Positions 14,740 through 60,607 of a stretch of DNA of 64,000 nt are shown here, in pieces. The translations under genes were made by a program, and so were the position numbers. This stretch comes from Escherichia phage FEC14. The stretch lies in the sequence record MG383452, one strand, 5' to 3'. A model generated the notes under the pieces. That model did not search any database. It was not told the origin of the DNA and saw only the letters and a program-made list of their open reading frames with translations. Positions within the stretch are counted from its first letter, which is position 1; every line of letters starts with the position of its first letter.

Positions 14740-15546
14740 ATGAATTTACCATCATTGCCCAAAACTGAGAGAACACATAAAAGTGATTTCTGGCCGACTG
14801 TGATCAAATACCGCGCCTTTACAGCAGGGCAACAGACCATGTTACTTCAGGTTGCTGATCCGAACACTCCTATGAGTGAGCGCGTGGCAACATTGGAGCA
14901 ACTATTTGACAGTTGTGTTGATGCTGGCGTTCCCTTTAGTAAACTGCCAATCGGTGTTACTGAAGAAGTATTTTTAAAGATGCGCTGTATATCTATCGGC
15001 GAGGTCATGAAGATACGTTACAAATGTAATAACAAAGTTCAAGCCGAAACCAATGAAGGTGGTGAAGAACCAGTTTCTGGCCTTAAAGATTGTGGTCAAG
15101 AGCTTGTGTTACCGATCCCGCTCAATCAAGTAAAATGCGTGTCCCCAGAAGGCTTCAGGGAGACGTTTGATCTACCAGGTGGTTATCATATAAAGATGCG
15201 CCAGCCGTCCTTCTCGGATGCCTCAGTGCTTAATGAAGCATCCTCTGTTGAACAAATGATTGCCACCTTTATCGATTGTCTGTATGACGACGATGGTCAG
15301 GTTTGGAAGGTGGAAAATCCGGCTGAACCTGGTATCGATCCAGAAGTTGCTAAAGAACGCCAACGCATTAAGGATGAATTTGTCAAATGGGTTGGGGACA
15401 ATATTGAATCCGAGATTGTTCAGGACATTTCGAATGATTTCTTTAAAAAGATTCCGCGTATTCGTTACGCGACAAAAATTAAATGCCCTTCGTGTGGGAA
15501 AGAACACGAAGTCAAATTTAACAGTGTCACTGAGATTTTCATTTAA
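14740..15546 (+). CDS. late protein, putative baseplate component (occupies the gene-53-like slot upstream of gene 5)
   Basis: 268 aa; late promoter; C-terminal CPSCG zinc-ribbon-like pair; function by position only. Confidence 0.45.
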   Translation: MNLPSLPKTERTHKSDFWPTVIKYRAFTAGQQTMLLQVADPNTPMSERVATLEQLFDSCVDAGVPFSKLPIGVTEEVFLKMRCISIGEVMKIRYKCNNKVQAETNEGGEEPVSGLKDCGQELVLPIPLNQVKCVSPEGFRETFDLPGGYHIKMRQPSFSDASVLNEASSVEQMIATFIDCLYDDDGQVWKVENPAEPGIDPEVAKERQRIKDEFVKWVGDNIESEIVQDISNDFFKKIPRIRYATKIKCPSCGKEHEVKFNSVTEIFI

Positions 15547-15695: not shown

Positions 15696-15722
15696 AACCC
15701 CACGTAATGTGGGGTTTTCTTT
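15696..15722 (+). terminator. rho-independent terminator
   Basis: AACCCCAC-GTAAT-GTGGGGTT hairpin followed by TTTTCTTT. Confidence 0.5.
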
Positions 15723-16052
15723 GCTTACCTGTATTACCGTTTAAGAAAGGATTGTTTAACCCGAAATTGCTATAACACCATTGTTCCTGATATGAATGTT
15801 GTGTAAATCTGTTTTGAATTTGTTTTGAAACAAAAATAATGCTTTTCTACGCATGTTCTGAGGTGTACAGTATTTTCCTCGCCTTTATGCCTCCATGGCA
15901 TTGGAATGGGACTGCCTGTCAAGGCGGTGTTACGAGCTTCAGCGAGTAGGAACGAAAAGAATAAAGGTTGAACGGAAGCAGAGCTTCCTATAATATATTA
16001 TTCGACAGATTTCAAATCCCCGCCATAAATATCACATGATTCTAATTGACTA

Positions 16053-17678
16053 ATGGGTTTCAATATGTTAGACAACTTGCGTTGGTTTTACGGGCGCGTT
16101 GAAGACGTGAATGATCCCGATCAAAACGGGCGCGTCGCAGTACGCATCTATGGGGTACACACGGAGGATACCACTCTCCTGCCTACCGAATTATTGCCTT
16201 GGGGTAAAATGCTTATGCCAGCATCTAACGCCTCCTCGGCAGGTTTAGGCTGGTCTCCGACGGGTATCACTGTCGGCTCTGACGTTATGGGGTTTGCTTT
16301 GGATGAAGCATATCAGAACATCCGTATTGCATGGGTATGGCCAGCAGCAACACCAACAGATGGGTCAGATACAAACCCATTGGCGCTGGGTCAGGTCGTT
16401 CAATCTATAGAAAGGCAGAAGTATAATGCCGTCGAGAATGTTCCTGTTAAGATTGAGGATGAACCACAACCGGATCCACAACCACCAGTAGACGGATATG
16501 ATCCTGAGAAGTGGATGACCGTGGCTCGTGGGGAATTGGGTGTCAAAGAATATTCTGGTAAGTTCAATAACAACCCAAGGATATTGGAATATCATAAGAC
16601 AACTTCCCTGGGGGCTTCAGAAGATGAAGTTAGTTGGTGCGCGTCGTTTGTCGGATGGGTTCTGATACAGGCCGGATATACATCAACACGTTCTGCTTTG
16701 GCTCGTTCATATTTACAATGGGGATCTCCTCTGTCAGAACCACGTTACGGCGCTGTTGTTGTATTCCGGCGTGGGAACAACCCAACATTTGGTCACGTCG
16801 CATTCGTTCAGAAATTTGACGCCAACTACGTCTGGTGTATCGGGGGAAACCAATCCGATTCTGTGAAGGTGAGTCGCTTCAGCCGCTCATCTGTGTTGGG
16901 TTATCGTTGGCCTGGTCCTGCTACGACAGCATCGGCGGCTCCTGCGCAACAAAATGGTAAATGGTCTGAGCCAATCCCTGATCGTACACCAAAAGTTCAG
17001 GAAACTCCGCCTCCTTCTGGCCGTGTTCAGGATATTGACAACACAGGAGAGGTATCGGTTCCTTCGGCTGGAGGGTCTCGTTATCCATACAACAATGTTA
17101 TGGCTTCTCGAGCTGGGCATATTATGGAGGTCGATGACACTCCAGGCGGGGAACGTTTGCATTGGATGCACTCTTCTGGGTCTTACAAGCAAATGCTTCC
17201 TGACGGTGATGTTGTTAATAAATCAGTCAAAGATCATTATGACCTGACGATGTTCGACAAACGTTATTATGTGGGGGGTGATCATAACCTGACAATTGGT
17301 GGGACTGAAGTACAGCGCAAGAAAGGAGAAGTTTACCACTTACACTCTTCTAACTATTCCAATGTGGTCGCTGGAACAGCGTTGATGAAATTTTCCCAAT
17401 TGGCTGAGATACAGGCACAGAACGTGTTGCGTCTCATCTGTGAAATGTTGGAAGTTTCCAATACTTTGAAAGTGCCTAAAATACTGGCTAGTGAAATAGT
17501 TTGTGATAAGTTGTCGGTGGCGCAGACTATTGAAGGCAACATCAAATATGCTGAAGGCGCTGGTCGCGCCGCCTCACGTGCGGGGGCAACTCCTGTAACA
17601 ACTACAGGCCCAGGTCCAATTGATATAAAACCGGAGTTAGAGGATAACGGTGGCAATTTTGGTGGTAAAGGCGCATGA
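16053..17678 (+). CDS. 5: baseplate hub / central spike protein, gp5-like, with CHAP-like (TIGR02594-type) peptidoglycan hydrolase domain
   Basis: N-terminus LRWFYGRVEDVNDPDQNGRVAVRIYGVH matches T4 gp5 OB-fold start; middle domain EYSGKFNNNPRILEYHKTTSL...WCASFVGWVL...GHVAFV resembles phage tail peptidase; start 16053 or 16065. Confidence 0.75.
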   Translation: MGFNMLDNLRWFYGRVEDVNDPDQNGRVAVRIYGVHTEDTTLLPTELLPWGKMLMPASNASSAGLGWSPTGITVGSDVMGFALDEAYQNIRIAWVWPAATPTDGSDTNPLALGQVVQSIERQKYNAVENVPVKIEDEPQPDPQPPVDGYDPEKWMTVARGELGVKEYSGKFNNNPRILEYHKTTSLGASEDEVSWCASFVGWVLIQAGYTSTRSALARSYLQWGSPLSEPRYGAVVVFRRGNNPTFGHVAFVQKFDANYVWCIGGNQSDSVKVSRFSRSSVLGYRWPGPATTASAAPAQQNGKWSEPIPDRTPKVQETPPPSGRVQDIDNTGEVSVPSAGGSRYPYNNVMASRAGHIMEVDDTPGGERLHWMHSSGSYKQMLPDGDVVNKSVKDHYDLTMFDKRYYVGGDHNLTIGGTEVQRKKGEVYHLHSSNYSNVVAGTALMKFSQLAEIQAQNVLRLICEMLEVSNTLKVPKILASEIVCDKLSVAQTIEGNIKYAEGAGRAASRAGATPVTTTGPGPIDIKPELEDNGGNFGGKGA

Positions 17679-17742
17679 TTACGCTGGTGAGGGCAGATAA
17701 TGCCCTCTCGTGCTGGAGAGGCAATATCCAAAGGGGTTTAAC

Positions 17743-18123
17743 ATGAAAGAGTACAAGGACATTGACCTGAAGTTTGGCATGCATCCGGTCACCAAAGATG
17801 TCACTAAGAAAACAGGCATTTATGCTGTACTACAATCTGTGCGTAATATAGTGATGTCGACGGTAGGTGATTGGCCGACGTATCCGAGTATTGGGGCGGG
17901 GTTGTATACCATGCTGGGAGAAAACACAAATCCCACGATACAGGTCGACGTGAAGAACAAAGTTGAAGATGCCATTGCTCTTTTTGAGCCAAGAGCTGAA
18001 TTGCAATCTGTTGATGTATCATTGTCGGACGATTATCATTCTCTGGGCGTAACCATCACGTTCTATGTGGTCAACAACCCAGAGCCGATAACAGACACCA
18101 TATGGTTGAAACGGACAAATTGA
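17743..18123 (+). CDS. 25: baseplate wedge protein, gp25-like
   Basis: 126 aa from ATG 17743 (AAGGGG RBS); collinear with T4 gp25 (…LFEPRAE…VDVSLSDDYHSLGVTITFYVVNNPEP). Confidence 0.7.
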   Translation: MKEYKDIDLKFGMHPVTKDVTKKTGIYAVLQSVRNIVMSTVGDWPTYPSIGAGLYTMLGENTNPTIQVDVKNKVEDAIALFEPRAELQSVDVSLSDDYHSLGVTITFYVVNNPEPITDTIWLKRTN

Positions 18124-23982: not shown

Positions 23983-24777
23983 TTAGCAGAAACTCTTGTA
24001 TGCTGCCGCCAGTTTAGTATCATACTGGTTTTTCGCATATGCCGGACCATTGTACCGACGAGCAAACTCGGCCCAATTCTTGTTCTTCAGGGCTTTCCAC
24101 ATATTGGCATCAGCCTTGATGAACTTGACAAATGCCAGAAGATGAGCGCGTTCACCAGTCAGGAAATCAGTGAACATCTCTTTGGCATTTGAATAGCCAC
24201 AGATTTGGCAGTTGAACCCCATGATCTGGAATAGGCCGTAGGAAGCACTCTCGTAAGCGCAGTCCTCGTCAAGGGCGATTGCACCCTGAAGGCGTTCCAA
24301 CTCCGCGTCTCCGCCGATATACCCGCCAGAATTGGGGTTAACCAATGTTGGGTAGAGTTGGTACAGAGCATTGGCTCTTGCTTGCCCGAATTTGGCCGTC
24401 ACCTTTTTGTACATGATGTGGCGCTCAAACAGAGTTTTGATCTTGCCAGTTTTGGTAAAACCCGTGCCACGGGATTCTACCTGGTTCACCGCTTTCATAC
24501 TGGCCAGCTCAACACCAAGTTCACGTGCTGCGTCAACCAAGTCCGCTTCGGTCAGATGTTCCTGGTGAGCGTCTCCAGCGTTGCGGATAGCATAGAAGGT
24601 CTTTGGCCCAGCAATACCATCAATAACCAATCCAGCACCTGCCTGAACGGATTTGACGGCATTCTCTGTTGCCTTACCAAATATGCCATCGGCTGTAAGA
24701 GAGAAACCGATTTTGTTGAGGCTTTGTTGAAGTGCTTTGACTTCAGAACCTCGGTTGCCAAGTTTTAGAATGGCCAT
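23983..24777 (-). CDS. endolysin: N-terminal peptidoglycan-binding domain plus C-terminal N-acetylmuramidase-like domain
   Basis: GSEVKALQQSLNKIGFSLTADGIFGKATENAVKSVQ (PG_binding_1-like) and YGLFQIMGFN catalytic region; ATG 24777 with GGAGG RBS. Confidence 0.7.
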   Translation of the reverse strand: MAILKLGNRGSEVKALQQSLNKIGFSLTADGIFGKATENAVKSVQAGAGLVIDGIAGPKTFYAIRNAGDAHQEHLTEADLVDAARELGVELASMKAVNQVESRGTGFTKTGKIKTLFERHIMYKKVTAKFGQARANALYQLYPTLVNPNSGGYIGGDAELERLQGAIALDEDCAYESASYGLFQIMGFNCQICGYSNAKEMFTDFLTGERAHLLAFVKFIKADANMWKALKNKNWAEFARRYNGPAYAKNQYDTKLAAAYKSFC

Positions 24778-32049: not shown

Positions 32050-32688
32050 TTAAGGTGTTGGATTGACAACGGGAATATGGAACCTGATTCCAGAGACAAT
32101 GTCCTTCAGCTGAGGCTTCCAGCCGTCCACCAGGCGGGACAACGCGTTAGAACCAGGATAGACAATAATGATGTCGCTTCCGGTTACATTATGTTGAGGG
32201 AATTGTGACATGTATTGCTCCATCGTCACCCCTGGGTCTATCAACACAGGACCGACATCCGAAGATGCATATGTTGCCCCCAAACCGTCGACGCCCCATG
32301 CTAGTATTCCATAATCAGGAATATTGGCTTCAGAAGTTATGGTGAATCCGAAGATACGATTCAGCGCAGAAAAATCATACACGCCGTGAGCACTGTCATA
32401 TGTCAGATAACCCTTTGACAGCATATCAGCGAATATCGCGTCTGTGTCACCAGTTGCCGGAGTCGGTATGGTAAACAATAACTCACCAGCAGGAGGGGAT
32501 GGATACGTGCCGAGCGCATAAAGGCACCAAGCGTCAATGCATTTCTTGATGAATGCTTCAGGCGCGACATAATCCGCAAGGCGCATTGTACCGGAATATT
32601 CTGAAGTAATGATCCCTTCCTTCGCGCCCTGAATGGCCAGAAATACCATTATGTGTTCATATCCGGTCTGAGATGGAGTGATATTCAT
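32050..32688 (-). CDS. hypothetical protein (212 aa)
   Basis: ORF track. Confidence 0.45.
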   Translation of the reverse strand: MNITPSQTGYEHIMVFLAIQGAKEGIITSEYSGTMRLADYVAPEAFIKKCIDAWCLYALGTYPSPPAGELLFTIPTPATGDTDAIFADMLSKGYLTYDSAHGVYDFSALNRIFGFTITSEANIPDYGILAWGVDGLGATYASSDVGPVLIDPGVTMEQYMSQFPQHNVTGSDIIIVYPGSNALSRLVDGWKPQLKDIVSGIRFHIPVVNPTP

Positions 32689-33305
32689 TATCTGGTCCTC
32701 TTGAGTTTCTCAATCGTGCGCTTATTCATGGCGATCACTCCTGGGTCGACCTTTGGGTTTATTGCCATGCCTTTGAAAGACACACATCGTTGAAGATATT
32801 TAGCCTTCTTCACGACGTCGGCTGCATAAGAATTGGATTTCTGGTTACGATTGAACCCAGCATTGTAAGAGGAAAGGGATTTGCGGATGTTTTGGTTATG
32901 ATATTCTAGCCAGAAATTCATTTCATCAAGGGCAGCATTGGCAGCATATTCTTGATTGACCAGTAATTTGATCGCCACGTTGGCGTAACACTTCTGTGTT
33001 TTGCATCCCTCCCGTTTCCCGACGGTTTGGACGCGATTTTGAAATGCCCCCATATTAGCCGATTTGAGGTTATTCCGCATGGATACAACATCTTCTCCAG
33101 CGCGGCTTTCCCTCCATGATATTGCGGCGAGAGTGAAACCAAGGTCTTGTTGTTTTCCCACGTGATAGGCTGTGGCCATGGTTGAAAGTTGTTGATCAGA
33201 AAACTCATAATCACATTGGGTGGTACTTTGGGAAGCGTGCACACTCCCGCTGGCAATGGTAAAGGTCACGGACAAGGCCATGGCCTTCAACGTTGTCATC
33301 GTCAT
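32688..33305 (-). CDS. secreted protein with lytic-transglycosylase (SLT)-like domain
   Basis: signal-peptide-like N-terminus (…ASGSVHA); ESRAG, GAFQN and SYNAG motifs in SLT order. Confidence 0.45.
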   Translation of the reverse strand: MTMTTLKAMALSVTFTIASGSVHASQSTTQCDYEFSDQQLSTMATAYHVGKQQDLGFTLAAISWRESRAGEDVVSMRNNLKSANMGAFQNRVQTVGKREGCKTQKCYANVAIKLLVNQEYAANAALDEMNFWLEYHNQNIRKSLSSYNAGFNRNQKSNSYAADVVKKAKYLQRCVSFKGMAINPKVDPGVIAMNKRTIEKLKRTR

Positions 33306-60283: not shown

Positions 60284-60607
60284 AATATAGTGGGGTTCAA
60301 GTCATATTTGACGCAAATTAGTATCGCGTGTTTGTAGTTATAGAACAAGTGATAAATTGCCCTACGCGCGATAAATAAATGCCTGACGGCATTTATAATA
60401 TTCTGTTTTAATAAAACCTTTCTTTATCAGTCTACTCGCTTCGCTCGTGATAATACTCGTTGCTCGCAAAGCTCACAACTCGTATATTACGCACGGATTG
60501 TTCAACAAGAAAGCGATTTTTATTCAACAAGTAAAATATTTTATTTGGTCTAAACAGAGCATGACATTATTATGTAGCCAAGTTTGCTAACACGTGAGAA
60601 ATAATAT
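60284..60607. promoter_or_regulatory. AT-rich divergent control region upstream of gene 45 with palindrome over a TATAAT and CTCG-repeat array
   Basis: TAAATGCC-TGAC-GGCATTTA palindrome at 60376-60395 overlapping TATAAT 60394-60399; repeated (T/A)ACTCG(C/T)T motifs 60430-60490. Confidence 0.3.

Follow-up and report, generated by a model that had tools for sequence, protein, structure and literature searches.

In the 64,000-nucleotide (nt) stretch of Escherichia phage FEC14 DNA analysed here (sequence record MG383452; the window, taken at its full length), the gene at positions 16053-17678 encodes an orthologue of the T4 central spike protein gp5 in which a cysteine-peptidase domain of the TIGR02594/CHAP type occupies the place of the T4 lysozyme. 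We consider it probable (about 0.8) that this Kuttervirus protein is the central spike of the baseplate, and that its papain-like peptidase cuts peptidoglycan peptides during penetration. The domain identities, the position of the swap, the conservation of the predicted catalytic dyad, the fold and the baseplate gene context come from the present analysis, and the presence of the protein in virions from the literature. The initial annotation of this DNA treated the feature as unreported, but the domain swap is already known since 2011, when it was published for the 99% identical protein of phage CBA120, with T4-gp5-like segments at residues 3-109 and 334-437 and CHAP/TIGR02594 at 150-282 (Kutter et al., 2011; PMC3184105), and for the 541-amino-acid (aa) "tail-associated lysozyme" of PhiSH19, described as "Gp5 OB family & CHAP domain" (Hooton et al., 2011; PMC3220722). 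What is added here is a structural model, the register of the dyad with that of the effector Tae3, and a wider distribution. The gene and its parts, in window coordinates, are:

16053..17678, plus strand: gp5-like baseplate central spike gene, 541 aa plus stop (alternative ATG at 16065, giving 537 aa).
16065..16352, plus strand: N-terminal gp5 OB-fold domain (about residues 5-100), found by PF06714 and aligned with T4 gp5 6-91.
16353..16502, plus strand: gp5-like linker (residues 101-150) with a Pro-rich end, PQPDPQPP; the profile alignment reaches T4 gp5 residue 173.
16512..16910, plus strand: TIGR02594/CHAP (NlpC/P60-clan) cysteine-peptidase domain, residues 154-286, from TIGR02594, CHAP, AlphaFold2 (AF2) and Foldseek.
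16638..16640, plus strand: codon (TGC) of the predicted catalytic Cys196.
16794..16796, plus strand: codon (CAC) of the predicted catalytic His248.
16842..16853, plus strand: invariant motif Gly264-Gly-Asn-Gln267 (GGNQ).
16917..17072, plus strand: Pro/Ala-rich linker (residues 289-340), modelled without secondary structure at a predicted local distance difference test score (pLDDT) below 40 and not alignable to T4 gp5.
17073..17441, plus strand: residues 341-463, homologous by phmmer and profile alignment to the first part of the triple-stranded gp5C beta-helix of T4.
17442..17675, plus strand: Ackermannviridae-specific C-terminal tail (residues 464-541) ending in L-x-D-N-G-G-N-F, conserved among orthologues.

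That the protein is a gp5-like spike with an OB-fold N-terminus, as initially annotated, is borne out by the Gp5_OB family (PF06714; 39.9 bits over residues 39-98, against a Pfam cut-off of 25), by matches of the N-terminus to the T4 gp5 chains in the PDB (E 7e-30 with the single sequence and 3e-44 with a profile), and by OB-fold strands modelled at a pLDDT of about 80 in the full-length AF2 monomer. With the single sequence, phmmer aligned residues 7-87 with T4 gp5 6-91 and residues 341-436 with gp5 384-477; a profile of 22 orthologues widened the alignment to gp5 6-173 and 385-506, the latter opposite spike residues 338-459. These alignments jump over T4 residues ~174-384, and the lysozyme domain of T4 gp5 comprises residues 174-339. 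Homology to the gp5 N-terminus thus ends at the boundary at which the lysozyme starts in T4 and TIGR02594 starts in the spike, so that the flanks are homologous and the enzyme cassette alone differs. The Pfam search found no lysozyme family in the spike protein at E <= 0.1, PF00959-type muramidases included, and both peptidase profiles scored above their cut-offs, in agreement with the initial proposal that a CHAP/TIGR02594 peptidase replaces the T4 lysozyme domain. The first of these profiles, TIGR02594 itself, is matched over positions 2-132 of its 132 by residues 154-286, with 132.9 bits (NCBIfam cut-off 70.55), and the second, CHAP (PF05257), by the middle region with 40.7 bits (Pfam cut-off 26).

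The same annotation had quoted two motifs from the middle region, WCASFV and GHVAFV, and proposed that an alignment lacking a Cys/His dyad would speak against a peptidase. Both motifs are real, the first containing Cys196 and the second His248, and the dyad is present on alignment. When the spike domain was aligned with 22 other TIGR02594 domains drawn from a search of 5.8 billion proteins, a set in which the domain stands alone in some proteins and is fused to SLT, LysM or peptidoglycan-binding domains in others, Trp195, His248 and Gly264-Gly-Asn-Gln267 were invariant in all 23, and Cys196 was kept in 22, the exception (P0039) having Ala at this position together with a TIR-domain hit (PF13676). 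This conservation of Cys, His and GGNQ spans domains of 28-54% identity, and Asn266 or Gln267 is a candidate, from its conservation, for the third polar residue of a catalytic triad. Two metagenomic relatives show how else the domain is combined: one (P0024) has two tandem TIGR02594 copies with a lysozyme and LysM, and another (P0026) joins TIGR02594 to an SLT domain, an arrangement also seen in the Acinetobacter baumannii effector Tae17.

The fold points the same way. A ColabFold/AF2 model of residues 140-300 (pLDDT 89.6, predicted template modelling score 0.86) places Cys196 as the first residue of a helix (domain residue 57) and His248 within a beta-strand (domain residues 108-116), a papain-like arrangement, and Foldseek paired it in the PDB, at probability 1.00, with the Clostridioides difficile autolysins Acd24020 and Acd33800, with MepS and other NlpC/P60 proteins, and with the CHAP domains of LysGH15 and LysK. 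At the level of sequence, phmmer with the single spike sequence found no peptidase relative in the PDB, and a profile of the domain alone matched Tae3 best (4HZ9; E 0.0018 over 70 residues), followed by NlpC/P60 DL-endopeptidases including CwlO and LytE, with the dyad in register. The Cys and His of the profile coincide exactly with Cys23 and His81 of Tae3, its catalytic dyad (PMC11796386). By PDB search, TIGR02594 is a separate subfamily without a solved member.

The genomic setting is that of a baseplate gene, with baseplate components on either side:

14740..15546, plus strand: gp26-like baseplate hub subunit, the upstream neighbour (PF12322, E 1e-51; phrog_150).
17710..18123, plus strand: gp25-like baseplate wedge subunit, the downstream neighbour (PF04965, 35 bits; phrog_261/43).

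Phages SFP10 and CBA120 have the same order as the window, namely gp26-like hub, a gap of ~500 nt, spike gene and gp25-like wedge, and the gp27 homologue lies outside the window. The spike gene, whose product is assigned to phrog_430, is 97.8% identical in nucleotide sequence to genes annotated in Salmonella and Escherichia phages of the Kuttervirus genus, family Ackermannviridae (SFP10, aagejoakim, GG32 and others), and is matched by 225 phage records. Its start is annotated at the in-frame ATG 16065 in SFP10, CBA120 and Matapan, and at 16053 in Vi01 and PhiSH19. One "Enterococcus phage" and one "Pseudomonas phage" record also match the Kuttervirus spike gene or its upstream element, the match of Efm 3-10 being 49 nt long at 94% identity; these records of unexpected host may be contaminated or mislabelled deposits.

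Downstream of the peptidase the protein is longer than first described: the initial annotation spoke of a short C-terminal region, but some 250 aa follow, comprising the Pro/Ala-rich linker and ~200 further residues, and about 120 of the 250 are homologous to the gp5C beta-helix. The assignment of residues 341-463 to such a helix rests on homology, and the tail at 464-541 has no family match in Pfam and none in the PDB. Orthologues from Limestonevirus, Taipeivirus and Erwinia and Serratia phages (P0014-P0022) are 605-617 aa long and carry, after DNGGNF, an extension of ~70 aa that is absent from Kuttervirus and ends in a conserved block, VIILK..G.KP....SNG..WE; it could be a spike-tip domain.

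Taken together, these features suggest the following course of events. The spike would form a trimer, by analogy with T4 gp5, its N-terminal OB-fold docking on the hub (the gp27 homologue) and its C-terminal part serving as a rigid needle that would be driven through the outer membrane upon sheath contraction, with the papain-like peptidase of the TIGR02594 subfamily, and Cys196 and His248 as its predicted catalytic dyad, seated between OB-fold and needle. The target of the peptidase in the periplasm would most likely be the peptides of the peptidoglycan, at the stem, the cross-link or the MurNAc-L-Ala amide, and not the glycan strand, and peptide cleavage would open a local hole for the tail tube. 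The trimer, the activity of the enzyme, its target bond and its part in penetration are all inferred. Mass spectrometry has placed the orthologue in the virions of LIMEstone (PMC3296691) and also, in a result cited by Kutter et al., in those of ViI (PMC3184105).

Several observations weigh against this picture. Structural likeness to the solved peptidases is moderate (template modelling scores of 0.5-0.7 at 12-21% identity for the Foldseek neighbours), and the sequence tie to them is weak (E ~2e-3). The structure prediction suggested at the outset was confident for the peptidase domain but poor for the full-length monomer, which has a pLDDT of 50 overall and below 50 at the C-terminus and carries no information on needle or tip. 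A search for the 8-residue gp5C repeat by hydrophobicity autocorrelation over residues 404-507 was negative (lag 8, z = -0.41). A literature search for enzymatic or genetic tests of the spike protein, or of any TIGR02594 member, found none, family mentions being at the level of annotation; nor did a search for a cryo-electron microscopy structure of an Ackermannviridae baseplate yield one.

The bond to be cut is where the neighbours of the domain diverge, as they span DL-endopeptidases, the cross-link endopeptidase MepS and CHAP amidases and endopeptidases, and comparison at this level does not name it. A domain with the same location and role might be an N-acetylmuramoyl-L-alanine amidase, or an endopeptidase of the meso-diaminopimelate (mDAP)-D-Ala cross-link, instead of a gamma-D-Glu-mDAP DL-endopeptidase. 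We hold this to be a serious possibility, though somewhat short of an even chance, given that CHAP lysins such as LysK and LysGH15 stand beside NlpC/P60 enzymes among the structural neighbours and that Tae3, which of the proteins with solved structures comes nearest in sequence, has been termed an amidase effector; on the other hand, the majority of the top neighbours (Acd24020, CwlO, LytE and MepS) are DL-endopeptidases of NlpC/P60 type. The lysozyme activity of T4 gp5 is reported to be dispensable under some laboratory conditions, and one could imagine that penetration is purely mechanical and the peptidase module a structural or peptidoglycan-binding remnant devoid of catalytic role. The TIGR02594 relative with Ala in place of the catalytic Cys demonstrates that inactive copies exist, but all spike-borne copies examined, from Kuttervirus to PhiW-14-like and P10VF-like phages at 32-40% identity, retain Cys, His and GGNQ, and we regard a non-catalytic module as improbable.

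It is more improbable still that the protein is a soluble lysis enzyme and not a virion spike at all, a notion for which we see hardly any room. The label "endolysin" is attached in RefSeq to the PhiW-14 homologue, and in other phages TIGR02594 proteins that stand alone carry endolysin annotations (PMC5418858; phrog_9589). Opposed to this are the gp5-type segments (OB and gp5C) on either side of the peptidase, the position of the gene among baseplate genes, the detection of the orthologue in virions by mass spectrometry, and the presence at 23983-24777 of another gene that encodes a canonical endolysin. A central spike armed with a peptidase agrees, moreover, with the recurrence of the OB plus TIGR02594 layout, also with gp5C, in gp5 of Delftia phage PhiW-14 (34% identity) and in Rhizobium P10VF-like phages (~36% identity), which argues for a functional, selected arrangement.

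Among known systems, the spike resembles T4 gp5 (PDB 1K28, 1WTH, 5IV5) in its OB-fold and linker (T4 6-173), in the start of its beta-helix (T4 385-506), in its baseplate context and in having an enzymatic domain inserted at the same position, and differs from it in the nature of that domain (TIGR02594/CHAP cysteine peptidase versus T4-lysozyme-type glycosidase), in its last ~78 residues, which have no T4 counterpart, and in its gene neighbours, gp26 and gp25 instead of the T4 order. With NlpC/P60 and CHAP hydrolases such as Acd24020, MepS, CwlO and the LysK CHAPK domain it has the papain-like fold in common. Tae3, an amidase effector of the Ralstonia pickettii type VI secretion system (T6SS), is its closest match of solved structure, a marginal one, and both enzymes are delivered to the target periplasm by a contractile injection machine. 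Tae3, however, is a free-standing effector (119 aa) whose triad is Cys-His-Ser (PMC10318531) and which is paired with a cognate immunity protein, whereas the spike domain lies covalently within the spike and has the invariant GGNQ, and we claim no membership of the Tae3 family. In Stenotrophomonas, TIGR02594 effectors adjoin VgrG genes (PMC13055248). Tentatively, then, the spike peptidase might be viewed as a phage-borne counterpart of Tae3-type T6SS effectors, acting as an endopeptidase or amidase during injection, a view to which we give somewhat less than an even chance.

Closer relatives are nearly identical. Orf092 of CBA120 shares 534 of 537 aa with the window protein, from which it differs by three substitutions and the choice of start codon, and Vi01_076 of ViI is 98% identical; the GenBank product names "cell wall-associated hydrolase" and "TIGR02594 family protein" reflect the domain. 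Further afield, metagenomic proteins with a gp5 OB domain carry other cassettes, namely PF13539 or PF08291 (both of which we take to be M15-type peptidases), PF00959 (the T4-type lysozyme family) or CHAP, and with such a variety of Pfam enzymes in gp5-OB proteins the cassette is evidently exchangeable.

Two further genes of the window bear on the degradation of the wall:

23983-24777, minus strand: muramidase endolysin (Muramidase PF11860, E 3.8e-58, plus PG_binding_1; endolysin PHROGs).
32688-33305, minus strand: SLT-like protein of 205 aa (SLT 21.6 bits against a cut-off of 21.3; phrog_600, "unknown function").

They had been counted initially, with the spike, as three different peptidoglycan-cleaving activities. 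The endolysin is solid, but the SLT-like assignment is borderline, and three wall-cleaving chemistries are therefore plausible, with two of them well supported. The SLT-like protein is annotated as hypothetical in SFP10, has no sequence relative in the PDB, and contains the motifs ES (66-67), GAFQ (86) and YNAG (147), which resemble those of family-1 lytic transglycosylases. Its N-terminus looks, by eye, like a signal peptide, and the protein may be a periplasmic lytic transglycosylase; the downstream neighbour of its gene (32050-32688) is a DUF7270 protein.

The 506 nt between the gp26-like gene and the spike gene are not empty, and contain the following:

15546 (ATT) or 15579 (ATG) to the stop at 15705-15707, plus strand: conserved small open reading frame (ORF), 53 codons from 15546 or 42 aa from 15579.
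15696-15716: terminator hairpin, with compensatory changes between genera.
15853-15992, plus strand: structured element of ~140 nt (core 15887-15950), with conserved sequence and proposed structure.
16024..16031, plus strand: T4-late-promoter-like box, CATAAATA, 21 nt upstream of ATG 16053 and 33 nt upstream of ATG 16065.

In Agtrevirus and Limestonevirus the start codon of the small ORF is an ATG that overlaps with the stop of gp26. AG3, Ds9CZ and LHE287 list the product of the ORF as hypothetical, at 49 aa, and SFP10, CBA120 and Vi01 leave the ORF unannotated; its stop codon falls within the loop of the terminator hairpin. The CATAAATA box is invariant in six Ackermannviridae from four genera, and a similar box, GCTAAATA, lies upstream of gp6; from its sequence and position CATAAATA is a putative late promoter.

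All Ackermannviridae loci whose gp5 protein is at least 84% identical have the structured element just ahead of gp5, and in the two most divergent loci (67-68% gp5 identity) it has a weak partial match or none. A core of ~80 nt recurs in four genera upstream of gp6, outside the window, and a reduced form is found near a third gene:

SFP10 NC_016073, ~134175-134257, minus strand: gp6-upstream copy, outside the window.
60431-60482, minus strand: reduced CGAG-rich module, CGAGTTGTGAG...CAACGAG...ACGAGCGAAGCGAGTAGA, upstream of a gp45-like gene.

Each copy, at gp5 and at gp6, is followed downstream by a conserved (C)TAAATA box that resembles a late promoter. The structure proposed for the core consists of hairpin A, a pseudoknot formed by its loop CCAU with a downstream AUGG, hairpin B, and a tandem G.A helix whose loop bears an inserted hairpin in one copy. 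Over 12 sequences it is 99.1% paired, as against 27-50% with slid partners, a test biased in its favour, the structure having been drawn by hand from the same 12 sequences. Compensatory changes occur in them at six pairs, including one in the pseudoknot from A-U to C-G, and in Taipeivirus the pseudoknot strands CCAU/AUGG have co-changed to CCCU/AGGG. A globally stable fold of the whole intergenic region was rejected (minimum free energy z-score 0.15), support being confined to local hairpins and the pseudoknot. Rfam gave no match to the gp5-upstream element other than sub-threshold snoRNA noise, and ARAGORN found no tRNA in it. The gp45-associated module lies ~165-215 nt upstream of the gp45-like sliding-clamp gene (ATG 60268) and has in common with the gp5 and gp6 elements an "ACGAGC-loop-GCGAGT" hairpin and the CGAGTTGTGAG stretch, without their two main hairpins. 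The core is an RNA-like motif, apparently pseudoknotted; the element might act as a small RNA, as a leader or as a module for protein binding common to baseplate and late genes, and the motif that gp5 and gp6 share in their upstream regions might regulate the expression of baseplate genes in a way not described before.

As a discovery, the domain swap adds nothing beyond the literature of 2011; its significance lies in showing that one enzymatic cassette of the gp5 spike can be exchanged for another. According to a 2017 review, few peptidase-type virion lysins have been characterised from phages infecting Gram-negative hosts, and endopeptidase activity had been demonstrated for only one virion lysin of such phages, gp5 of phi6. 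If the role proposed here is correct, the Ackermannviridae, together with PhiW-14-like and P10VF-like phages, would be myoviruses that infect Gram-negative hosts and whose virion lysin is of the peptidase type, not of the glycosidase type. The practical interest is modest, and concerns enzybiotic design and the understanding of superinfection exclusion. In T4, the Spackle protein inhibits the lysozyme of gp5 and thereby blocks superinfection; a spike that carries a peptidase instead would be immune to exclusion of the Spackle type.

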